Origin: Caldisericota bacterium
Lineage (GTDB): Bacteria > CAIJMQ01 > JAADFP01
Assembly: GCA_013152825.1 (NCBI GenBank)
Contig: JAADFP010000045.1
Coordinates: 1-33,611, forward strand
DNA: 33,611 bases
Reading direction: 5' to 3'
The position numbers were made by a program, and so were the translations under genes. The notes beneath the pieces were generated by a model. That model was given only the letters and a program-made list of their open reading frames with translations, ran no database searches and was not told the DNA's origin. Below are positions 3,209-33,611 of this stretch, in pieces (the first letter of the stretch is position 1; each line of letters begins with the position of its first letter).

Positions 3209-3945
3209 TTTTTTATGTATTGACAATATTTCCCGAATTTTTTTATCCGTTTTTAGAAAAAGGGATAGTTGCCAAAGGCATAGAGAGAAAGAAGTTAGAA
3301 ATACGCATTAAAAATTTGCGGGATTTCACCAAAGATAAGAGAAGGACAGTGGATGATTACTCGTTTGGAGGCGGCGGCATGGTTTTGAAACCAGAGCCGG
3401 TATTTTTAGCTATGGATGAGGTTAATAAAGAATTTAAAAATAAGAAGAGAGTAGTTCTTCTTACTCCGCAAGGGGAAATTTTTACCCAGAGGAAAGCAGA
3501 AGAATTTGCCCGGGAGAAGGCACTTGTCCTGATATGCGGACGATATGAAGGCGTGGATGAAAGAATCAGAGAGACGTTGATTACCGATGAGATATCCATT
3601 GGTGACTATGTGCTGGCAGGAGGAGAACTTCCCTCCCTGGTAGTGATAGAAACAATATCCCGCATTATACCGGGGGTTTTGGGGAAAGAAAGATCCTACG
3701 AAGAAGATTCTTTTACCCAGCCCTTTTTAGATTGGCCGCATTACACGCGTCCCAGGGAATTCCGCGGGAAGCAGGTCCCCGAGATACTCTTAAGCGGGAA
3801 CCACCAGGAGATAAAGAAATGGAGGCTAAAAGAAGCTTTGAAAAGGACCCTGCAAAGACGGCCTGATTTACTCAAAGAGGAACTTTTAGATAAAGAAACG
3901 GGAAAGATACTGAGAGAAGTAAAAAGAGAAAGGAGGCTCGGATGA
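3205..3945 (+). CDS. trmD: tRNA (guanine37-N1)-methyltransferase
   Basis: 246 aa; [23 protein letters not shown] and [11 protein letters not shown] motifs of TrmD; 4-nt overlap with rpsP. Confidence 0.95.
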
Positions 3946-4307
3946 ATATACAGGAATTGGTAGAGAAAGAAAAAATGCGGGAAGATATCCCGGAATTTCA
4001 GGTAGGAGATACAGTCAAGGTATACACAAAAATCTTCGAAGGGGGAAAAGAAAGGGTGCAGGTTTTCGAGGGCATAGTAATTCGTAGACGCGGAGGAGGA
4101 TTGCGTGAAACCTTTACTGTGCGGCGCTCAAGTCATGGTGAAGGGGTAGAAAGAATATTTCCCCTGCATGCTCCTATAATAGAAAAGATTGAGGTAACCC
4201 GCAAAGGCAGAGTAAGACGCGCCAAACTTTACTACCTGAGAAAAGTAAGGGGTAAGAAATTAAAGGTAAAAGAAAGAACCCAGAGACGAGAAGTAAATAG
4301 TAAATAG
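3942..4307 (+). CDS. rplS: 50S ribosomal protein L19
   Basis: 121 aa; FQVGDTVKV...[12 protein letters not shown] core of bL19; the last 4 codons and the stop lie inside the heptad repeat. Confidence 0.95.
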
Positions 4308-4395
4308 TGAGTTGATTCCATAGTATCTTAGTTTCTGGGGTTTATCTTTTGGATTTATTTAGGATTTAGAGTTTTGTGTTTGGAGTTTTTAATAA
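4291..4395 (+). repeat. heptad-periodic modular intergenic element, locus A (NAGTAAA block followed by a T/G-rich xxxxTTT block)
   Basis: 15 in-phase 7-mers from 4291; no C in 4347-4404; the 17-mer at 4358-4374 is repeated exactly (inverted) at 27418-27434. Confidence 0.8.
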
Positions 4396-4983
4396 AGGTG
4401 GAATCTATACCCAGGAGGAATCTGGGAAAAAGGATACACCTTTATAGCCGGGATAGACGAGGTAGGAAGAGGACCGCTGGCCGGGCCAGTAGTTGCAGGT
4501 GCAGTAATTCTGAGACCTTTTACCTACATAGATAAACTCAAAGACTCAAAAAAACTTACTCCTGGAAAGAGGGAAGAATTTTTCGCTCTAATTGTAAATA
4601 ACTGCATAGACTGGGCAGTGGGTATAGTAGAAGCTCGGGAAATAGAAAGGATAAATATTCTCCAGGCTTCAAAATTAGCCATGCAGCAAGCCATAAAAAA
4701 CCTCAGACAGAAGCCGGATTTTCTCCTCATAGACGCAGTAAAACTTACTTCTGAAACACCTTCCAAATCAATAATAAGAGGCGATGAAATCTCAGCTTCC
4801 ATCGCCTGTGCCTCAATAATAGCCAAGGTAATGAGAGATAGATTAATGGATAACTTATCCCTTATCTTTCCCCAATACGGCTTCGAAAAGCATAAGGGAT
4901 ACCCTACAAAATTCCACCGGGAGAAAATCGCAGAGCATGGATTAACTCCCATACACCGGAAAACCTTCAAGTTTAAAAAGTAG
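4396..4983 (+). CDS. rnhB: ribonuclease HII; 5' end unresolved (no in-frame ATG/GTG/TTG before codon GTG 4618)
   Basis: The frame is open from 4396 and reads ..IWEKGYTFIAGIDEVGRGPLAGPVVAGAVIL..DSKKLT..ASIIAKV.RD..M..GFEKHKGY, spanning the full RNase HII core. The ORF track reports only the C-terminal 121 aa. Confidence 0.8.
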   Translation, partial: RWNLYPGGIWEKGYTFIAGIDEVGRGPLAGPVVAGAVILRPFTYIDKLKDSKKLTPGKREEFFALIVNNCIDWAVGIVEAREIERINILQASKLAMQQAIKNLRQKPDFLLIDAVKLTSETPSKSIIRGDEISASIACASIIAKVMRDRLMDNLSLIFPQYGFEKHKGYPTKFHREKIAEHGLTPIHRKTFKFKK

Positions 4984-4985
4984 AA

Positions 4986-5393
4986 TTGAAAGGTCATTTA
5001 GTCAGATTCTTTTCCCTATTTAAAAAAGCACCTACTTTAAAGAGAGGTGTACAGGGAGAAAAACTGGCAGAGAAATTCCTGCATAGGAAAGGCTTGAAAA
5101 TATTGCAGAGAAACTTCCGGATAAGAGGGGGAGAAATAGATATCATTGCAGAAGATAACGAGACTACTGTTTTTATAGAAGTAAAGACCCGCTCCACGGA
5201 CTCCTTCGGCAGTGCGGGGGAGAGTATAAACTACTACAAGAGGAAAAGCTTGCGGAAAACTGCTCTTTTCTATCTTAAAAAGAAGGGACGTCCTTTTAAG
5301 GCCAGGTTTGACGTAATATATGTAAATCTGCACTCTGATAACCGGCTAAAAGCTATCGAATGGATTAAAAATGCTTTCCCATTTGAGGAATGA
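4986..5393 (+). CDS. YraN family (UPF0102) endonuclease-like protein
   Basis: 135 aa with GE.LA..FL...G..IL.RN.R..GGEIDIIA.D....VFIEVKTR, the YraN signature; TTG start 2 nt after the rnhB stop. Confidence 0.8.
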   Translation: MKGHLVRFFSLFKKAPTLKRGVQGEKLAEKFLHRKGLKILQRNFRIRGGEIDIIAEDNETTVFIEVKTRSTDSFGSAGESINYYKRKSLRKTALFYLKKKGRPFKARFDVIYVNLHSDNRLKAIEWIKNAFPFEE

Positions 5394-5400
5394 CAGGGAA

Positions 5401-5630
5401 AGACTATACACTCAAGACTTTAGACTATAGACCGTAGACGGGAGGAATTAGTTAGTAGCGAGTAGATAGTAGTGGGTAGCGAGGAAAGGAGTGGTAAGCA
5501 GTGAACAGTGAATAGTAAGCAGTTATGAGAAAATCCCAAATCCCTCCTGATGAAACATCGGGATCGGGAGGCGGAATTGGCAACTAACAACACCTATCTG
5601 CATGCGGCTCGCCCACGCAGGATAACTTTA
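5401..5630 (+). repeat. heptad-periodic modular intergenic element, locus B
   Basis: 28 in-phase 7-mers across 5401-5596 followed by an imperfect hairpin at 5595-5624; shares 12-19-nt exact words with loci C and D. Confidence 0.85.
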
Positions 5631-5653
5631 TCCCCATCCCTCAAAGAAAATCT

Positions 5654-6415
5654 TCACTTTAGCTGGGGGAAAAGAGAGAAGAAATTTTCCGTGGTAATGC
5701 GGGCAATATCTTCTTCCGGGATTCCTTTTAATTCCGAAAGCATTCGCAAAGGAAGAACCACTTCCAGCGGAGTAGTAGGTTTACCTTTATAGGGCACCGG
5801 GCTGTCAGTTTCCAGGATTAACCTATCTATAGGCGCTCTCTCAATCACTCTTTTATAACCATGACTGTAGCCTATGGCCGGATTAACCGAAAGATACCCC
5901 CCGGCAGAAACTATATCCCCTACCAGAGAAGGACTGCCCGAAAACCAGTGAAATATTGCTCTTTCCACTTCCATTTCTTTCACTATTTCCACACAATCCC
6001 TAACTGCCCGACGAGAATGGATAATCACCGGTTTTTGATATTCTATGGCCAGGGAGAGAAGTTTTTTAAAAACCTCTTTCTGTCTGTCTGGTTCCTCCTC
6101 TCCCTTGTAATCCAGGCCAATTTCACCCAGAGCCACAACAAACTCAATATGCTCTTTTAACCAGGAAATTTCTTCTTCTACTTTCAGGTTACCCAAAAGA
6201 AAGGGATGAAGTCCTATGGCTGGATATACCAGGCCTGGAAATTTCCGGGAAATTTCCAGTATCTTCTGGTTTGAAATCATTTCCTCCCCTACCCCCAATA
6301 CCACTATCCCTTTCCTATCGCACTCTGCCAGCACACTTTCTACCCGGGGAATATCGTAAAGGTGAGAATGAGTATCCACCAGGAATACAGGCTTCTCTCT
6401 TTTTAAAAATTGCAT
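5654..6415 (-). CDS. tatD: TatD family metal-dependent hydrolase/DNase
   Basis: 253 aa; VDTHSHL N-terminus, GEIGLDY, HSR and ETDSP motifs of the TatD family. Confidence 0.85.
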   Translation of the reverse strand: MQFLKREKPVFLVDTHSHLYDIPRVESVLAECDRKGIVVLGVGEEMISNQKILEISRKFPGLVYPAIGLHPFLLGNLKVEEEISWLKEHIEFVVALGEIGLDYKGEEEPDRQKEVFKKLLSLAIEYQKPVIIHSRRAVRDCVEIVKEMEVERAIFHWFSGSPSLVGDIVSAGGYLSVNPAIGYSHGYKRVIERAPIDRLILETDSPVPYKGKPTTPLEVVLPLRMLSELKGIPEEDIARITTENFFSLFPQLK

Positions 6416-6427
6416 GAAATCTTCCAG

Positions 6428-6913
6428 CTATAGGGAAATGATTTTTGCTTCCAGAGCTTCCGGGTCAAGGAGAGCTATAGTGGACTCCTGGCTCAACCAG
6501 CCGCCGCATTCCCCCGGGTTTATCACCAGGGAATGGCCCAGTTGTTTTATTTCCTGCTTATGGGTATGCCCGTAAATGAGAATGTCAATATCCCCTGATT
6601 TTGCCAGAGAAGGAACCAGGTCTCCTTTGTGGGTTAAAAATATTCTTTTACCCTCCACCTCTCCCAGGAAAAAGTCTTCGTGAATTTCTCCCAGGTTTTT
6701 ATAGGCTTTCTTTAAGCCGATTTTTTCTCCATCGTTATTGCCAAAAACTCCAATAAGCTTACCATCAAATCCTTCAAATAACCGCACTGTAAAAGGCGAG
6801 ATAAAGTCTCCCGCATGAAAAATGATTTTCACCTTCTGTTGTCTAAAAATATTTATTGCCTTCTTTAAGGAAGACAGGTTATCATGCGTATCAGAGATTA
6901 TTCCCCATTTCAT
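6428..6913 (-). CDS. MJ0936/YfcE family metallophosphoesterase
   Basis: 161 aa; SDTHDN, HAGD, GNND and GHTH motifs of calcineurin-like phosphoesterases. Confidence 0.8.
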   Translation of the reverse strand: MKWGIISDTHDNLSSLKKAINIFRQQKVKIIFHAGDFISPFTVRLFEGFDGKLIGVFGNNDGEKIGLKKAYKNLGEIHEDFFLGEVEGKRIFLTHKGDLVPSLAKSGDIDILIYGHTHKQEIKQLGHSLVINPGECGGWLSQESTIALLDPEALEAKIISL

Positions 6914-7734
6914 GTTGATGCCTCCTTTCCACTCCAGAATTTTAAGATTATTTCCCTGATTACTGTTGCTCCCAGAACCGAGGTAATATGAGCGCCTTCC
7001 AGGAGGGGATTCAATTCCACTATGTCAAAACCTATAAGCTCAAAAGGAGGAAGACGGTTTAGCCATTTTAAGAATTCCGGGAAGTAAATTCCACCTGGTT
7101 CAGGGTTACTCACTGCTGGAGCAATTGAGGGATCGAATACATCCATATCTATACTCAGGTATACTTTATCTTCTTCTTTTAATGGGAGTTTTTTTTCCAT
7201 GGGAAAGAAGGAGATTTCTTTCTCCTCTACTGCCACAGACCTGATACCCACCGGGATAATTTCTCTTCCACTCTCTTTTAGTCTCCTCATTACTGTGGCA
7301 TGATTAAGCAAGGAACCTTTCCAGGAATTGCGAGAATCAAGGTGTGCATCCAGATGTAGTATTCTTATTCCCGCAGGTAAGTTTTTTACTACAAAATAGG
7401 TGATTGAGTGATCCCCTCCTATAGTAATAATTTTCTTTCTCATGTTTAGAAGGGGAAGCATGTGGTTTTCTACGCGGGAAAGAATTTCTTCTTCTTTTTC
7501 CAGGGGAGAGAGAGGAAGATTTGCCAGATCAGAAATAGGGATACTCTCAAGATTCTTCTTCTGATAAGGAGAATAAGATTCTATTAACCAGGAAGCTTCT
7601 CTTATCTTATTAGGCGCCAGAACAGTGCCCGGAATAGAAGTGGTTAATTCGTAAGGAAAACCTGTAATTACTACTCTGGATTCTTCTGCCGTGGAGGTAG
7701 CAGAAAGAAAAGTAAATTTAGAGTAAGGTTTCAT
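6910..7734 (-). CDS. speB: agmatinase (ureohydrolase family)
   Basis: 274 aa; GGDHSIT, LDAHLD and SIDMDVFDP motifs of the arginase/agmatinase fold; lies in the polyamine operon. Confidence 0.85.
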   Translation of the reverse strand: MKPYSKFTFLSATSTAEESRVVITGFPYELTTSIPGTVLAPNKIREASWLIESYSPYQKKNLESIPISDLANLPLSPLEKEEEILSRVENHMLPLLNMRKKIITIGGDHSITYFVVKNLPAGIRILHLDAHLDSRNSWKGSLLNHATVMRRLKESGREIIPVGIRSVAVEEKEISFFPMEKKLPLKEEDKVYLSIDMDVFDPSIAPAVSNPEPGGIYFPEFLKWLNRLPPFELIGFDIVELNPLLEGAHITSVLGATVIREIILKFWSGKEAST

Positions 7735-26892: not shown

Positions 26893-27375
26893 ATGAAAAG
26901 GAAACGGGTCATTTCTCTTCTCATCTACGCCATAGCCATGGCTTACGTGGAAGCTCTGGTAGTAGTTTACCTAAGAAAGCTTGTACCCCTGGAAATATGG
27001 GAAAAAGCCACCAGTTACCAGGACATAACCCGGCTCATCCAAAGAGTGGGTATTATGTGGAGCGAACAAACCAGGGAGTTTGCCACCATAGTAATGCTTG
27101 GTACTGTAGCTTACTTATTTGGAAGAAGTAAAAAGGAAAAGTGGGCAGGATTCCTGATTTCCTTTGGTGTATGGGACATTTTTTACTACATATTTCTTTA
27201 TCTCTGGATACAATGGCCTTCCTCTCTGCTCACTCAGGATGTACTTTTCCTCATTCCCCTGCCCTGGGTAGCACCGGTAATCGTTCCCATTACTATCTCT
27301 GTAATACTGATACTCTGGGGTAGCCTGCTTCTTATACCAATTTCACCTTTATCACAACATAGATTAGGAAAGTGA
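26893..27375 (+). CDS. hypothetical polytopic membrane protein
   Basis: 160 aa with 4-5 hydrophobic helices; no family recognised. Confidence 0.5.
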   Translation: MKRKRVISLLIYAIAMAYVEALVVVYLRKLVPLEIWEKATSYQDITRLIQRVGIMWSEQTREFATIVMLGTVAYLFGRSKKEKWAGFLISFGVWDIFYYIFLYLWIQWPSSLLTQDVLFLIPLPWVAPVIVPITISVILILWGSLLLIPISPLSQHRLGK

Positions 27376-27436
27376 TGAGCTGCTACCCATACTTGTGTCC
27401 CGGGGTGAAATTAGGATAAACTCTAAATCCTAAACT

Positions 27437-27481
27437 TCCCGAAAGAATCCCGGACCCCGATATTATATCGGGGCTTCGGGA
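27437..27481. other. nested GC hairpin module
   Basis: Outer stem TCCCGAA (27437-43) pairs with TTCGGGA (27475-81). Inner stem CCCCGATA (27455-62) pairs with TATCGGGG (27466-73), loop TTA. Confidence 0.6.
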
Positions 27482-27567
27482 CCAAAACCTAAATAAATCT
27501 AAATGCTCAAGCCCAAAACTTCTCCCAGGAAACCAACTAACTGCTTATCCACCTACTCCCCGGTAAC

Positions 27568-27603
27568 ATCGGGACAGGCAGGAATGACAGGGGGAGCTGG
27601 TAT
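27568..27603 (-). repeat. 36-nt exact repeat, copy 1 (inverted partner at 31597-31632)
   Basis: ATCGGGACAGGCAGGAATGACAGGGGGAGCTGGTAT is the exact reverse complement of 31597-31632. Confidence 0.95.
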
Positions 27604-28026
27604 CCTGCATCTTGTATCTTACTCACTTCCTAACTTATTCACTTACTCACTTTTTACTATCCTGCATTCTTCTCACTACTCCTTCCCTCGCTACTAACTA
27701 ATTCCCCACTATAATGTCTAATGTCTATGGTCTACAGTCTAACTCGTTGGTCGGTTGAGGTTGCGTAGCTCGAATCGTATATCGTTATTCGTCCACCGTC
27801 TTCCCCCACCATAAAATAGGAAGAATATTCTCTCCTTGTTCCTCTCTTCCTCCTTTTTGCCCCTTCCTCTTTTCCTCTATTCAATCCTGTCTATTGACTC
27901 CTGATGAAATCTTTGGGATTACCTCAGTTTTATGGAAGAGAAAATCCCATAGTTGTGTTAAAATTTGGGGGAAAGCGGAAGTAAAAGTTTCTGGAGTTTC
28001 TTGTGTTTAAACAGAAAGAATAGATA

Positions 28027-29700
28027 ATGGTCTGGAAGATAAGAAAAAAAAACGACCCCTATGAAATAGAAAAACTGGTCCAGAGCTTAAGGATTTCTCC
28101 TCTGACAGCAGAAATGCTGCTTTACCGCGGAGTTACCACAGTAGAAGAGGCCAGGAAGTTTCTCTATCCCTCACTTGATGCTCTTCTCCCCCCCTCTGCA
28201 ATTCCCGATATAGAGAAAGCAAAGTATCGTATTGAAAAGGCAGTAGAAAACAGGGAAAAAATTCTTCTGTACGGAGATTACGATGCCGATGGAATCACCG
28301 GAACTGCGCTCCTTTACCACTTTTTTAAGAAGCAGGGCATTGTCCCCGAAGTCTATATCCCCCACCGGATAGAAGAGGGCTATGGATTTCATAGAGAGGC
28401 AGTGGAGAAACTTTCAGAGAAGGGATTCTCCCTCATCATTACTATTGACTGTGGAACAGAAGGAGAAGATGCAGCCTGCGAAGCAGCAGAGAAAGGAATT
28501 GATTTGGTTATTTGCGACCATCATATAAAAGAAGGGAACCTGCCTCCTGCTTATGCCCTGATAAACCCACATATTCATACACATTCACCAGGCAAGGAAC
28601 TCGCAGGATGCGGAATAGCTTTCAAACTACTTCAAAGCCTTGACGAAGAAGAAGCTTTCAAACATTTGGACCTGGTAACCGTAGGTACTGTAGCTGATAT
28701 TGTCCCGGTTATAGGGGATAATCGCATCCTGGTAAAGGAAGGCTTGTTAAAAATCGCAGAAACCTCAAAAAAAGGGCTCAGGAGCCTGCTTGAAATATGC
28801 GGCCTGAAAAAGAGAAAGATAACTGCCTGGGATATTTCCTTCCTATTAGCTCCTCGACTGAATGCCGGGGGAAGAATGACCCATGCGCTTAAGTCCCTGA
28901 GTCTTCTCCTGAGTAACGATGAAGAAGCCAGGGAAATAGCTCTCTCACTGGAACTGGATAACCGCAACAGGAAAAAAGTAGGTGACAATATACTCAAAGA
29001 AGCAGGAAAACTGATGAGAGAAAGAGAAGAGGAATCAGCCCTGGTACTGGCAGGTGAAGGATGGCATGCCGGAGTGCTGGGAATAATTGCTTCCCGCCTG
29101 GTAGATAAATACTCCCGGCCTGCTTTTGTAATAAGCCTTCCCCCCGATAAAAGCAAACCAGCAAAGGGTTCAGCCAGGAGTATCCCGGGCATAAACCTGT
29201 TTAATCTCCTAAAAGAATCGCATGACCTATTACTTACCTACGGTGGCCACGAAAAAGCAGGAGGGTTCGAGATACTTCCAGAGAAAATAAACGTCTTCCG
29301 TGAGAGAATTCTTAGCTTAATCAAGGATATCCCTGCTCCCGAGGAAAAGACCCTTTTGATAGACAAAGAAGTTTCACTTGACACCTTAACTTTTCAGCAG
29401 ATTAAGGAGTTATCCCTGCTCTCCCCCTTTGGAGAAGGGAACGAAGAACCACTGCTCCTCTCCCGTAAAGTGAAAATGGTAACTACTCCCCGTCCCCTGG
29501 GAAATGGTCATATAAAATTCTGGGTAAAAGGTGAGAAGTTACACCTGGAAGTTCTGGGATTTGGCTGGAAAGATAAGCTGGAAGATAACCTGAGCAAAGG
29601 TAGAGAAATTGACATAGTCTATACTCCTCGCACCAATAACTGGGAAGGGCGAAATAGTGTGGTTCTCATCCTTCAGAGCTTGAAAATATCTTCTAGGTGA
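28027..29700 (+). CDS. recJ: single-stranded-DNA-specific exonuclease RecJ
   Basis: 557 aa; DHH motifs (YGDYDADGITG, DCG, DHH) and a DHHA1 region (GGHEKAGG). Confidence 0.93.
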   Translation: MVWKIRKKNDPYEIEKLVQSLRISPLTAEMLLYRGVTTVEEARKFLYPSLDALLPPSAIPDIEKAKYRIEKAVENREKILLYGDYDADGITGTALLYHFFKKQGIVPEVYIPHRIEEGYGFHREAVEKLSEKGFSLIITIDCGTEGEDAACEAAEKGIDLVICDHHIKEGNLPPAYALINPHIHTHSPGKELAGCGIAFKLLQSLDEEEAFKHLDLVTVGTVADIVPVIGDNRILVKEGLLKIAETSKKGLRSLLEICGLKKRKITAWDISFLLAPRLNAGGRMTHALKSLSLLLSNDEEAREIALSLELDNRNRKKVGDNILKEAGKLMREREEESALVLAGEGWHAGVLGIIASRLVDKYSRPAFVISLPPDKSKPAKGSARSIPGINLFNLLKESHDLLLTYGGHEKAGGFEILPEKINVFRERILSLIKDIPAPEEKTLLIDKEVSLDTLTFQQIKELSLLSPFGEGNEEPLLLSRKVKMVTTPRPLGNGHIKFWVKGEKLHLEVLGFGWKDKLEDNLSKGREIDIVYTPRTNNWEGRNSVVLILQSLKISSR

Positions 29701-30879: not shown

Positions 30880-31320
30880 ATGAACATACTGGTAATTCAT
30901 GGGCCTAATCTGGATTTACTGGGAAAAAGAGAACCAGAAATTTATGGAAAAGAAACCCTGGAAGATATAAACAATCTTTTGGAAAAGAAAGCAGAAGAAA
31001 AAAAAGTTTCCCTGAAAATAGTTCAAAGTAATTACGAAGGTAAAATTGTAGAAGTAATAGGTTCCTCGTTAGAATGGGCAGACGGGATAATAATTAATCC
31101 TGGTGCCTACACTCATACTTCCATAGCCATCAGAGATGCACTTGCTACATTCAACAAACCCTCAATAGAAGTCCATCTTTCTAATATCTACGCCAGGGAA
31201 AAATTTCGTCATCATTCCTACATCTCACCTGTATGCACGGGAAAAATTACTGGTCTGGGAAAATGGAGCTACTTATTAGCACTGGAAGCATTGGTGGCAA
31301 TAATGAAAAGCAGTAAATAG
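30880..31320 (+). CDS. aroQ: type II 3-dehydroquinate dehydratase
   Basis: ILVIHGPNLDLLGKREPEIYG..., INPGAYTHTSIAIRDA and EVHLSNI motifs; the last codons and the stop lie inside the heptad repeat. Confidence 0.95.
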   Translation: MNILVIHGPNLDLLGKREPEIYGKETLEDINNLLEKKAEEKKVSLKIVQSNYEGKIVEVIGSSLEWADGIIINPGAYTHTSIAIRDALATFNKPSIEVHLSNIYAREKFRHHSYISPVCTGKITGLGKWSYLLALEALVAIMKSSK

Positions 31321-31596
31321 TGAACAGTAAGGAGTAAATAGTAAGTAGGGGAGTAAGCGAGAAGAAGCATAACCCGCCTGCTCTCGACTAAGCCATGCCC
31401 GCTCCCGACCAACGCGGAAAGGCAGGCGGGGAGGGCGGACAGAGGCACAAAGGAGAGAAGAGAAGAAATGAGGAGAAGAAAGGCCGGGTATCCTGAGGAA
31501 TTTTATTCTAACTTCCATGTGGTTTAGGGTTTGAGTTTATTATTTTGGATTTTGGGTTTATTTAGAACTTTGGATTTGGTGTTTAGGGTTTATCCA

Positions 31597-31632
31597 ATAC
31601 CAGCTCCCCCTGTCATTCCTGCCTGTCCCGAT
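31597..31632 (+). repeat. 36-nt exact repeat, copy 2
   Basis: ATACCAGCTCCCCCTGTCATTCCTGCCTGTCCCGAT is the reverse complement of 27568-27603. Confidence 0.95.
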
Positions 31633-31656
31633 CTACATCGGGGCGAAAGCAGGAAT
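31615..31656. other. nested hairpin module
   Basis: ATTCCTGC (31615-22) pairs with GCAGGAAT (31649-56). This encloses CCCGAT (31627-32) paired with ATCGGG (31637-42), loop CTAC. Confidence 0.6.
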
Positions 31657-31827
31657 CCAGGATTTAGACTATAGACCTTAGACTGGCAGGAGTAATTAGT
31701 AGCTAGGGAAGAGTTGGTTATTAGTTTTGGAGATTGGTAGGGGTTGTTTGAGTTTTGTTATTTGTAATTTGTGGTTTATTTAAAACTTAGGGTTTATTCC
31801 CCCTCCCATCTTACCTCAGAGCAAATA

Positions 31828-31865
31828 TCTGCAGTTTGGTTGCAGAAATATAAAAATGCTATAAT
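31828..31865 (+). promoter_or_regulatory. candidate extended -10 promoter with an overlapping palindrome, upstream of the HEPN/MNT pair
   Basis: TGCTATAAT (TG at 31857-58, TATAAT at 31860-65); TTGGTT at 31836-41 (18-nt spacer); palindrome TCTGCA(31828-33)-N7-TGCAGA(31841-46). Confidence 0.4.
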
Positions 31866-31938
31866 TAAATCGGTGTTATTTCAATATCCAAGAAAGACAT
31901 GAGAAAGTTTCTTAGGATAGTTTAGAATCAGGGGATTT

Positions 31939-32328
31939 ATGGAATATAAAGAAGAAGTTAGCTACTGGTTAAAAGCAGCAGCGCATGATTTAGAAGTGGC
32001 TGAAATTTTGTTTGAGAGAAGGAAATATGATTGGTGTCTTTTTATAGCTCATTTAGTACTTGAAAAAACTCTCAAGGCTCTCTATGTAAGAGATAATGCA
32101 AAGATGCCCCCACCTATTCATAAACTGGATATCTTAGCCAGAGAAACCAAATTATCTTTTTCTCTTGAGGATTTAGAGTTTCTTAAAAAAGTTAATGAGT
32201 TTAATATCCAGGCAAGGTATCCCGACAAAAAATTCTCTTTTTATAAAATCTGCACTAAGGAATTTGCAGAAAAATTCTTTAATAGAATAAAAGAGTTTTA
32301 TAAATGGTTACTAAAAGAGATAAAATAA
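31939..32328 (+). CDS. HEPN domain protein
   Basis: 129 aa, all-helical; ..A..DL..AE.L...G.Y.W..F.AH...EK.LKAL... and ..ARYP.. are typical of the HEPN family that pairs with minimal nucleotidyltransferases; no Rx4-6H motif found. Confidence 0.8.
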   Translation: MEYKEEVSYWLKAAAHDLEVAEILFERRKYDWCLFIAHLVLEKTLKALYVRDNAKMPPPIHKLDILARETKLSFSLEDLEFLKKVNEFNIQARYPDKKFSFYKICTKEFAEKFFNRIKEFYKWLLKEIK

Positions 32329-32621
32329 TCCAGGAACTCCGAGACTTAATAGCCACCCTGGAAAAAGAGGGGATTTCTATTAGGAGAGCTTATCTATTCG
32401 GCTCCTATGCCCGTGGCAACCCTAAAAAATGGAGCGATATTGACCTTCTCCTTGTCTCTGATAATTTTTCCGGCATAAGATTTTATGATATTGAAAAACT
32501 GATTCCATTGACCAGAAAATTCAACAAGTTTATTGAACTCCATCCTCTCAAAACTGAAGATTTCAATTTAAAAGATTTATTTATAAAAGAGATAACCAAA
32601 ACCGGAATTAGAATTAAGTAA
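32304..32621 (+). CDS. minimal nucleotidyltransferase (MNT, Pol-beta superfamily)
   Basis: 105 aa; LFGSYARGNPKKWSDIDLLLVS matches the GSxxRG...SDxDL NTase motif; overlaps the HEPN gene by 25 nt. Confidence 0.85.
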   Translation: MVTKRDKIIQELRDLIATLEKEGISIRRAYLFGSYARGNPKKWSDIDLLLVSDNFSGIRFYDIEKLIPLTRKFNKFIELHPLKTEDFNLKDLFIKEITKTGIRIK

Positions 32622-32700
32622 ATCGACGGTAGTGAGGGAAGAATAGTAAACGGTAAATAGTAAGCAGTAAATAGTTTCGTCCCTTAGTATCCTGGCTGGA
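32616..32700 (+). repeat. heptad-periodic element, locus E (NAGTAAA block)
   Basis: 9 in-phase 7-mers across 32616-32678: AAGTAAA TCGACGG TAGTGAG GGAAGAA TAGTAAA CGGTAAA TAGTAAG CAGTAAA TAGTTTC; followed by GTATCCTG at 32687-94. Confidence 0.8.
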
Positions 32701-33015
32701 AGTTTTGCCCTGAATCTCACATGGTTCAGGAGATATTCTGCAACGGCGTTAAATCTCGCACTGTCATATTCAAAATTACTTTCTGTGCTAAAATATTTTA
32801 AGAGAGCAATGCACATTCCCTTGATTTCTGGTATAGATATTGCTTTATAATATATAAGGAGATAAAGTTACAATAGAAGCATTGCCGCAGGAAATGGAAG
32901 ATGAGAGGTGATATATTGTATAAATTATCTGCCAGGGAAAGGTGTTGTCTGTACAAAAATGTCCTACACTTGAGACAAAAATGGTCATTATGCTAAGAAA
33001 GGAGAGTTACCGTAG

Positions 33016-33611
33016 ATGAAAGTAGGTATAATTCTGGTAATTGAACAAGAAAAAGATGTACGCGAGCTCATTTCAGCTACCCTGCAAGAAAAAGGACATG
33101 TGGTTGCCTCATTTTCAACCTGTGGAGAAGCAGCAAAATTCCTTCAGGAAAACCCAGATATAGATGTTGTTTTATTGGACATTTCTCTGGCAGGAGAAAA
33201 GGGGAATAATTTCTTGCAATGGATAAGAATAAAATATCCTGATCTCCCAATTATTATAGTAACCACTACCATGGAACTACCCGAAACACTCAAATGTATG
33301 CGGGAAGGAGCATTTGATTACCTTAGCAAATCATCTTTTTACCCGGAAGAGCTACATATTATAGTAAAAAAAGCAAAAGAGTTAAAGTCTCTAAAGGAAC
33401 AAAACAGAAAACTAATCCAGGAGCTAGAGTCCAAATCCATAGAAAGTGCCACAAAATTGAAAGAAATATTCCTGGGGAGTCTTAATGCGTTGGTAAAGAC
33501 CATGGAAATAAGAGACGGCTACCTGGTAGGTCATTCCAGGAGGGTGGCCAGCATCTCCCTGAAAATTTCTCGCAAGATAGGATTTGCAGACAACCTGAGA
33601 AAGAAAATACT
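33016..33611 (+). CDS. response regulator, REC domain plus HD (probably HD-GYP) output domain; 3'-partial at the window edge
   Basis: ATG at 33016 after GAAAGGAG. The REC domain (..DVVLLDISL.., IIIVTT, DYLSK) is followed by a coiled linker and ..MEIRDGYLVGHSRRVA.., the start of an HD domain. The frame is open to the end of the window. Confidence 0.85.
   Translation, partial: MKVGIILVIEQEKDVRELISATLQEKGHVVASFSTCGEAAKFLQENPDIDVVLLDISLAGEKGNNFLQWIRIKYPDLPIIIVTTTMELPETLKCMREGAFDYLSKSSFYPEELHIIVKKAKELKSLKEQNRKLIQELESKSIESATKLKEIFLGSLNALVKTMEIRDGYLVGHSRRVASISLKISRKIGFADNLRKKI

Follow-up and report, generated by a model that had tools for sequence, protein, structure and literature searches.

In a 33,611-nt stretch of a Caldisericota bacterium genome assembly (the window), the genes eno-divIC-ffh-rpsP-trmD-rplS-rnhB-yraN follow one another in this order, and the junction between rplS (ribosomal protein L19, 121 aa) and rnhB is occupied by a tract of 7-nt repeat units. 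The first-pass annotation had read this tract as a single heptad run (4291-4395), fused to the rplS stop codon and continuing up to rnhB. Cut every 7 nt from 4291, the letters match the units it listed; rplS ends inside the tract, and stops are present in all three frames of AAGTAAATAGTAAATAGTGAG. Positions 4347-4404 are free of C, the nearest lying at 4346 and 4405. The 17-mer TTTAGGATTTAGAGTTT occurs exactly at 4358 (+) and 27418 (-) against 0.04 expected matches, and AGTAAA is found 49 times in the window compared with 28 ± 5.5 expected, a count reached in none of 100 shuffles. A third copy of the 17-mer, identical at 16 of 17 positions (TTGAGGATTTAGAGTTT, 32165-32181), lies in the coding sequence of the HEPN open reading frame (ORF; residues LEDLEF), either by chance or as a remnant of exchange between the gene and the repeat.

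For 4291-4395 the lag-7 self-identity amounts to 0.49, compared with 0.334 ± 0.045 for dinucleotide shuffles (none of 2000 as high). The period-7 signal is thus real, but it does not form one run: identity is 0.62 for 4291-4318 (3 of 2000 shuffles as high) and 0.55 for 4339-4392 (20 of 2000), while 4312-4340 scores 0.27, the same as shuffles. Two periodic tracts are therefore split by a non-periodic 27 nt. TRF reports 2.4 copies of AGTAAAT here, along with an overlapping period-11 match (TTTAGGATTTA twice, 4347-4368) that is not a heptad array. The tract does adjoin rnhB, as first described, but the rnhB start does not simply follow 4395, where no canonical in-frame start exists.

The tract has three parts: an array of AGTRANN units that we call S1, a non-periodic centre, and a C-free array of GTTTNNN or TTTNGGA units that we call G (Table 1). 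Together (4285-4396) they align over their full length with a non-orthologous segment of a related metagenome contig (L013:10751-10860), composed of an S1 end-motif ending in ATAGTAAATAGTGAGTTGG, the centre, and an inverted array of TAGACNN units (D). Further homologous, non-orthologous copies of the S1 end-motif (..ATAGTAAATAGTGAGTTGG..) occur in L013, L022, L044, L075 and L081, and the centre aligns separately with L013:10783-10810 and is related to the window segment at 32676-32700. The commonest mismatch in the L013 alignment is C>T, turning the GTCTANN unit of the relative into GTTTNNN in the window. Loss of the invariant C of the inverted D units in this way explains the C-free tract, and by this correspondence the G array is the inverted counterpart of D arrays. 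Positions 4278-4392 are probably a partial copy (S1 end-motif, centre and degenerate inverted D array) of a lineage-specific, high-copy mosaic family of intergenic repeats in a Calescamantes-related thermophile. The last nine rplS codons (TQRREVNSK, from ~4278) and the stop would then derive from the insert.

The copy between rplS and rnhB (intergenic region 1, IG1; 4291-4395) lacks the hairpin found in other copies. Its predicted RNA fold was no better than shuffles on either strand (minimum free energy -21.7 kcal/mol, z = -0.8), terminator and promoter scans of 3900-5700 gave nothing on the + strand, an Rfam covariance-model search of the whole window returned no match at gathering score, and 27300-28100 yielded nothing meaningful in Rfam at E<1.

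Empty and filled sites in relatives

The closest L19 proteins come from metagenomes (P0001 and P0002, 92-93% identity), followed by one at 80% (P0003, from the NCBI metagenome-assembled genome (MAG) GCA_027076875.1), and L19 of 'Candidatus Calescamantes' is 72% identical, with the same gene order as the window. An exact look-up of the window L19 itself gave no record. In the Calescamantes MAG L009, rplS and rnhB are separated by 3 nt. In L012, whose L19 is 93% identical to that of the window, a TTG start of rnhB lies inside the last rplS codons. These comparisons show that the junction was ancestrally compact, with the two genes overlapping or 3 nt apart. The first-pass annotation had asked whether the -SK tail was an addition tied to the repeat, and the orthologues bear this out, as their C-terminal codons differ where the repeat is absent from the site (KVKEKNLA* in L012, KVKEKKK* in L003 and VKEKS* in L009).

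Two independent assemblies, L001 (JGI) and L002 (ENA), have flanks 96.1% identical to L012 over 800 nt and carry one extra 94-nt block, placed exactly at the rplS/rnhB junction. The block is bounded by GAAAGAAAAG and GAGAGAAAAA, opens with the S-like heptads GTAAGGA GTGAGAC GTAAGAA GTGAGCA, and gives L19 the tail IQRREVSKE*; in L001 it is flanked solely by an imperfect 10-nt direct repeat (8/10 identical). L012 thus represents the empty site relative to its 96%-identical sister L001. The window is more distant in its flanks (77% identity to L001 and L012), yet its insert occupies the same position, has a left end homologous to that of the L001 insert (25/34 nt) and yields the L19 tail TQRREVNSK*. 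Two histories fit this pattern, precise loss of an old insert from L012 through the direct repeats or two separate entries, and the data do not decide between them. The IG1 copy has put nine new codons in place of the last three of rplS and has displaced the start of rnhB.

In strains of the 80% lineage (L003, L004 and L005), this spacer is occupied by another D-S unit, in inverted orientation. The three strains have identical L19 sequences, and their spacers measure 50, 43 and 57 nt, steps of exactly one 7-nt unit, which shows that arrays change length by 7-nt steps between strains. L013 and L014 are identical in sequence and hence give no information on unit number.

The insert also bears on how rnhB begins. 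A GTG at 4376, within the G array, opens a 23-codon frame (4376-4447) encoding MFGVFNKGGIYTQEE, a match to the N-terminal residues of the L001 and L012 proteins. Near 4420, 4 nt are deleted by comparison with these two (ATTTTG to TC), which shifts the continuation, WEKGYTFIAGIDEVGRG..., into the -1 frame (frame 1), where the full RNase_HII domain is encoded. Because a Shine-Dalgarno-like AGGAGG (4413-4418) is positioned 7 nt 5' of G AAA AAG (4426-4432), a -1 slip would restore the RNase HII protein; alternatively, rnhB may be a fresh pseudogene or the assembly may be in error at this place.

Remodelling of the aroQ end and an adjacent toxin-antitoxin segment

A second junction repeats this pattern. 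The window aroQ terminates with agc agt aaa tag (31309-31320), as first noted, inside an S1 array that begins at the Lys codon after which, in L013, arrays also begin. In L013 an S2 array, a type with AGTAGNG units, opens with the TAG stop codon, and the protein ends IIK*; in the window the tail is IMKSSK*. At the array-free site of L113 and L114, whose AroQ is 82% identical, the gene ends IIKEKK* and is followed by 55 nt without arrays (L113:6398-6452) and then by a response-regulator/HD gene, the counterpart of the window ORF at 33016. Comparison of these orthologues indicates that the AroQ tail, like that of L19, has been altered by the presence of the repeat. The closest AroQ (94-95%) is encoded on a contig of JGI 3300028399, and the public runs with that contig are labelled hydrothermal vent metagenome.

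The 55 nt of L113 correspond in the window to 1.7 kb (31321-33015) that contain mosaic sequence, the HEPN/MNT toxin-antitoxin genes (31939-32621) and one more S array. Direct S arrays with 79% identity (31305-31342 and 32638-32675) enclose this segment, which suggests that the HEPN/MNT cassette arrived, or is held, between repeat arrays. The MNT gene had been counted as a third remodelled gene end. Its TAA (32619-32621) does lie within an AAGTAAA block, but the stop codon is all that it shares with the block, and since its Pfam domain reaches residue 104 of 105 there is no added tail.

A mosaic family with a small set of modules

Within the window, sliding lag-7 analysis locates period 7 almost only in five intergenic regions (4243-4400, 5390-5548, 27686-27760, 31296-31800 and 32629-32684), TRF finds period-7 arrays at 4292, 5401, 27712, 31312 and 32642, and in-phase trinucleotide runs number 130 at period 7 compared with 26-66 at periods 5, 6, 8 and 9. 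The regions have modules in common: S arrays (AGTRANN), D arrays (TAGACNN), G/T-rich C-free G arrays, a hairpin (H) and small CCCGAT-N4-ATCGGG hairpins. One 36-nt stretch of H is 100% identical between 27568-27603 (-) and 31597-31632 (+). Module polarity is constant within each region, and 27376-28026 is inverted in its entirety. The + strand of IG4 forms a long hairpin (-71.2 kcal/mol, z = -4.0) and the - strand folds less well (-48.2 kcal/mol, z = -1.55), because G pairs with D through G.U wobble.

Table 1 Genes and repeat modules at the rplS/rnhB and aroQ junctions and in the other mosaic regions of the window
Feature	Position	Strand	Remarks
rplS	3942-4307	+	TAG 4305-4307; Pfam domain up to residue 112
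S1 array end-motif, GAGAAGTAAAT AGTAAAT AGTGAG (unit AGTRANN)	4285-4311	+	Last rplS codons and TAG; stops in three frames
Non-periodic centre, TTGATTCCATAGTATCTTAGTTTCTGG	4312-4338	+	Segment of the same dispersed element as the neighbouring arrays
G array, C-free GTTTNNN/TTTNGGA units	4339-4392	+	Contains 17-mer 4358-4374 and GTG 4376
rnhB	4376-4983	+	GTG 4376 (frame 2), then frame 1 (4396-4983)
IG2, mosaic after yraN	5385-5576	+	H right arm GGAATGACAGGG with yraN TGA; D 5412-5440; S2 and S1 5446-5525; small CCTGAT..ATCGGG hairpin
IG3, inverted mosaic between two + genes	27410-27748	-	G 27410-27440, 27484-27520; H 27540-27603; S 27610-27700; D 27705-27748
S1 array, 5-6 units	31305-31355	+	Gives aroQ last codons (SSK) and TAG
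IG4, mosaic	31513-31797	+	G 31513-31593; H 31597-31661; D 31663-31690; S-like 31691-31712; G 31713-31797
IG5	32616-32700	+	S block AAGTAAA with MNT TAA; S1 array 32638-32676; spacer related to 4312-4338

The TGA of yraN (UPF0102; 5385-5396) lies within the right arm of H (GAGGAATGACAGGG), making this a fourth window gene with an end taken from a repeat module. Small CCCGAT-N4-ATCGGG hairpins also occur within other modules, one inside the H loop (31621-31648) and one splitting a G array (27441-27483), which indicates insertion of one repeat into another. G arrays are specific to the genome of the window: the possibility that relatives share them was rejected, as no counterpart was found there. 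Features of a miniature inverted-repeat transposable element were absent from 4276-4400, where no inverted match longer than 6 nt joins the ends, and tandem pairs of CCCCAGT, TTGGTCA, CAACAGT, TAACTGA or GGGNATC were absent from the window.

Distribution and orientation of arrays

For a broader view of the family, a 23-mer of the L013-type H hairpin was traced to 97 metagenome loci, 44 of them from the same JGI sample, and heptad arrays were carried only by the loci of that sample. For the census, 33 array-bearing related loci were combined with the window (~230 kb), and a codon model trained on long ORFs supplied the gene calls. None of its 180 arrays (100 S and 80 D) lies inside a gene. The recurrent order of modules is H - ATTTT - D (4-5 units) - GGGAGA - S1 - S2...GGGG or a TGGTATC-type array - H. 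Unit logos (D T-A-G-A-C-y-n, S1 A-G-T-R-A-r-y, S2 a-G-T-A-G-n-g) combine a fixed core of 4-5 nt with 2-3 free positions, and the unit consensus is TAGACNN for D, AGTRARY for S1, AGTAGNG for S2, TGGTANC-like for T and, in the genome of the window, GTTTNNN for G. Array length is bounded: D arrays most often have 5 units and never exceed 6, S2 arrays most often have 4, and S1 arrays have 2-7. In sequencing run X1, unique genes have a read depth of ~68x and repeat bins 1360-4500x (20-65 times as high), which indicates tens of copies per genome in a 95%-related vent relative.

The first-pass annotation had called for the distance and orientation of the arrays relative to stop codons to be tabulated genome-wide. 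In the census, sense S arrays cluster at upstream stops and antisense arrays keep away from them: among 49 sense S arrays, 23 come within 60 nt of an upstream stop and 8 overlap it, compared with 2 of 30 and none, respectively, for antisense S arrays. D arrays show the same tendency (12 of 38 sense and 1 of 25 antisense near an upstream stop), and in co-directional spacers S arrays are sense in 25 cases and antisense in 12. Consensus sense arrays contain stops in three frames, whereas antisense arrays are open in two or all three, with no stop at all in antisense S1. The proposal that the element inserts at, or replaces, gene 3' ends can accordingly be kept in part. The L19 and AroQ tails have changed, but a unit devoted specifically to gene 3' ends is not supported. 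Most arrays are found at other places between genes, where they occur in either orientation and belong to larger ordered mosaics, and the IG1 copy overruns the 5' end of rnhB as well.

Beyond the census, the Calescamantes MAG L009 has its own period-7, pyrimidine-rich intergenic tracts (CTTTTAC/CCTTTCA-like, 2925-2967 and 3875-3932). IMG/VR contigs of 47-63% G+C (L115-L2xx, e.g. L154, L192, L158, L140 and L202) carry many long and almost perfect arrays of CAGTAAT, CAGTGAT, CAGTGAG or GAGTGAA, the largest with more than 10 units, so heptads with an AGTRA core are not confined to the lineage of the window. The D-S linker motif was absent from the viral contigs scanned. A scan of genome contigs with a 20-mer of the window H gave only three chance matches in unrelated taxa, and a scan of metagenomes with a 32-mer gave none. 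In L013, ksgA and recJ are separated by a 6S RNA gene (6783-6988, -; Rfam, 75 bits); no counterpart was detectable at the corresponding place of the window (IG3), where the upstream neighbour differs.

Hairpin H and a predicted GIY-YIG nuclease

The H hairpin of relatives reads ..TGTCAT-GCCTGC-GGAA-GCAGGC-ATCCAG.., whereas in the window the stems are TCCTGC/GCAGGA and the loop holds a further hairpin. NTS repeats of Neisseria, with the layout CGTCATTCCCGCGMAVGCGGGAATCYRG, are cut by SsnA, a single-strand nuclease of the GIY-YIG type, and similar repeats ('SRM') are widespread (Chenal 2025, PMC11893778). H shares the layout GTCAT, 6-bp stem-loop-stem, ATCCAG with NTS, and the NTS/dRS3 mosaics of Neisseria likewise consist of intergenic units bracketed by hairpins, although 50-150-bp RS units stand there where heptad arrays stand here (PMC11893778). 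The strict SRM pattern HGTCWYN(0-2)YYVSBRHN(0-5)WNVSBRGN(0-2)RNCYNB is matched neither by the window H nor by the abundant GCCTGC-stem variant, although both keep GTCAT..ATCCAG and the hairpin; canonical SRM matches (CGTCATTCCCGCGCAAGCGGGAATCCAC) are present in the related loci L028 and L079.

A 96-aa ORF with a GIY-YIG domain (Pfam 1.1e-17), a predicted nuclease, directly follows H in L068 (2703-3060, -), a locus that we assume to come from the same genome. This resembles the arrangement described for ssn genes, which are flanked by their motif (PMC11893778). A second small single-domain GIY-YIG ORF (Pfam ~1e-17) is found at L086:32-328 (-) in the array-bearing metagenome, and no GIY-YIG gene is present in the window. 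The exact 23-mer GTCATGCCTGCGGAAGCAGGCAT recurs in soil, sediment and water contigs with 32-73% G+C (L016-L112, e.g. L030, L063, L095, L103 and L104), often as the first hairpin of a composite GTCAT-hairpin-ATCCAG-loop-CTGGAT-hairpin-ATGAC. For an NTS/SRM-type repeat, this conservation of sequence between unrelated genomes is striking. The idea that S-type arrays always travel with SRM hairpins was rejected, since 13 IMG/VR contigs have many CAGTRAN arrays and no such hairpins.

Origin of the arrays and alternative explanations

The elements are most likely selfish or neutral DNA. Arrays would grow and shrink by replication slippage, and whole modules may spread by insertion and be lost by recombination between short direct repeats, with the H hairpins and the predicted Ssn-type GIY-YIG single-strand nuclease possibly taking part in module gain and loss. 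The clustering at stop codons is sufficiently explained by the reading frames of the arrays. As 7 equals 1 modulo 3, a stop triplet (TAG, TAA or TGA) fixed in each unit reaches all three frames within 21 nt, so that sense arrays stop every frame and antisense arrays leave two or three open. An ORF entering a sense copy would be closed after a few codons, and sense copies may therefore be tolerated in, and accumulate at, gene 3' ends where antisense copies would not. Effects on expression, namely uncoupling of rplS and rnhB translation and structure in the 3' untranslated region where G and D pair, would be secondary. Several observations weigh against this account. Neither a transposase nor terminal inverted repeats were found, and the one direct repeat at the flanks is imperfect. 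The fixed cores, bounded length and 2:1 sense bias fit a selected periodic binding site at least as well as neutral slippage. The 230-kb sample was gathered through the H hairpin, which biases it to mosaic regions and may mix genomes; the Ga0256830 contigs are assumed to be one organism, and the gene calls come from a heuristic, home-made codon model. A search of sequencing runs with the window found no reads of its own organism, leaving the junction and the rnhB frameshift uncheckable against raw data.

The arrays could instead be functional cis elements, periodic (NAG-N4)n platforms that an oligomeric protein would bind, much as HutP or TRAP do, in RNA or in single-stranded DNA. They would then control 3'-end formation, mRNA stability or translational coupling, and the IG1 copy would regulate rplS and rnhB. 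HutP recognizes repeated UAG-N4 sites in Bacillus hut antitermination, and D and S2 arrays likewise present UAG at a 7-nt period; the differences are that no hutP, hut operon or terminator context is seen in the window, and that the arrays here number hundreds of copies in both orientations. A cis role would fit the (T/C)AG set at a 7-nt period by all of D, S1 and S2, the invariant cores with 2-3 free positions, the modes of 4-5 units, the sense excess in co-directional spacers and near stop codons, and the G.U-paired fold of the IG4 + strand, which the - strand does not match. Yet one third of the arrays are antisense, the IG1 fold is not significant, no candidate binding protein was identified, and G arrays are missing from relatives. 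Moreover, the IG1 copy is absent from a 96%-identical relative and replaced elsewhere by a different, inverted unit, which makes it dispensable there. We therefore regard a cis-regulatory role as unlikely, though by no means negligible. A broader version, in which the arrays and the NTS/SRM hairpins form one organised system, with (U/T)AG at a 7-nt period read by an oligomeric single-strand-binding protein that acts jointly with the Ssn-type GIY-YIG nuclease hairpins, is in our judgement slightly less likely still. If true, such a system would govern recombination, DNA uptake or mRNA 3'-end formation genome-wide in a deep-branching thermophile, and the remodelling of gene ends would be a by-product.

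Taken literally, the first-pass annotation implied a site-specific mobile element aimed at stop codons or gene 3' ends. The window and L001 inserts share both position in rplS and left end despite their diverged flanks, with L012 lacking the insert; the arrays of the window and L013 start after the same AroQ Lys codon although they differ in type (S1 and S2); and the 8 sense S arrays that overlap a stop point the same way. However, the rplS pattern would arise just as well from a common ancestral insert that L012 has precisely lost, and purifying selection against open antisense arrays accounts for the polarity. Most arrays lie away from gene ends, their insertion sites have no evident motif in common and no recombinase is linked to them, so that such targeting is improbable. 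An intrinsic terminator or attenuator between rplS and rnhB would find its U5 run in GGAGTTTTTAA (4382-4392), after a G/U-rich tract able to pair weakly with the S array; given the empty + strand scan, a fold energy matched by 39 of 200 shuffles and the lack of the tract in relatives, it is very improbable. Finally, the contigs of relatives often break at these repeats and an unexplained rnhB frameshift adjoins the tract, as might be expected of an assembly artefact or of chance low-complexity sequence. This is hardly credible when the AGTAAA count, the 17-mer, the in-phase runs and the lag-7 identity all speak against chance, a like architecture is seen in the independent assemblies L001 and L002, and homologous copies occur at many loci.

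Comparison with known repeats

The preferred reading, a dispersed mosaic repeat family, has precedents. In E. coli, BIME/REP elements are intergenic mosaics built from a small vocabulary of motifs, often at gene 3' ends and in both orientations, and tandem heptads are not among their components. The construction of the family described here is similar, with the difference that it includes tandem heptads and that no relationship to REP/RAYT was shown.

Heptanucleotide intergenic arrays as such are already known. According to the summaries given in two studies (PMC4679880, PMC4692102), heptamers are the commonest long simple sequence repeat (SSR) class in bacteria, and cyanobacterial STRR repeats are known in Calothrix. 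As far as these summaries describe them, the STRR/LSSR repeats of Calothrix and Nostoc are also dispersed, strain-variable 7-nt arrays of 2-6 units outside coding sequence; the window family differs in having other units, which are degenerate (a core with free positions), and several array types in a fixed order with hairpins. It shows the head-to-tail 7-nt units, dispersed intergenic copies and unit-number polymorphism by which heptanucleotide SSRs are defined. Heptamer elements are also present in Geobacter metallireducens (PMC2700814).

Two heptamers come closer in their relation to genes. TAACTGA repeats of marine Beggiatoaceae, cyanobacteria and Bacteroidetes, whose forward-strand stops limit gene overlap, occur in 2-6 intergenic copies, ribosomal-protein operons included, and a periodic protein-binding role has been proposed for them (MacGregor 2015, PMC4679880). 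They lie mostly just upstream of start codons, whereas sense arrays here lie near upstream stops, have another unit and belong to a hairpin mosaic. GGGNATC/GGGGAYT heptamers of Xanthomonas and Nostoc are enriched on the sense strand within 50 bp of stop codons and, as here, have a bounded copy number (Rehm 2015, PMC4692102). Their G-tracts form G-quadruplexes, while S and D arrays lack G-runs; the GGGTTTA-like G arrays of the window are the only candidates for such structures here, and could conceivably form them. What is new is the host lineage, the set of units, a mosaic in which several arrays follow a set order between NTS/SRM-type hairpins, and the direct evidence, from empty sites, that the ends of conserved genes have been remodelled.

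Implications

Empty and filled sites in near-identical strains show that the C-termini of conserved proteins, a ribosomal protein among them, can be rewritten by small tandem-repeat mosaics, which may also break translational coupling in compact operons. A simple rule of orientation tolerance follows from a period of 7 with an embedded stop triplet, which places stops in three frames. In practice, these mosaics break metagenome assemblies and mislead gene-end and start-codon calls in this lineage. The genomes known to carry heptanucleotide repeats are extended from cyanobacteria and proteobacteria to an uncultured thermophilic phylum, and the physical tie between the arrays and NTS/SRM hairpins, the substrates of Ssn nucleases, may help explain the origin and spread of either repeat.

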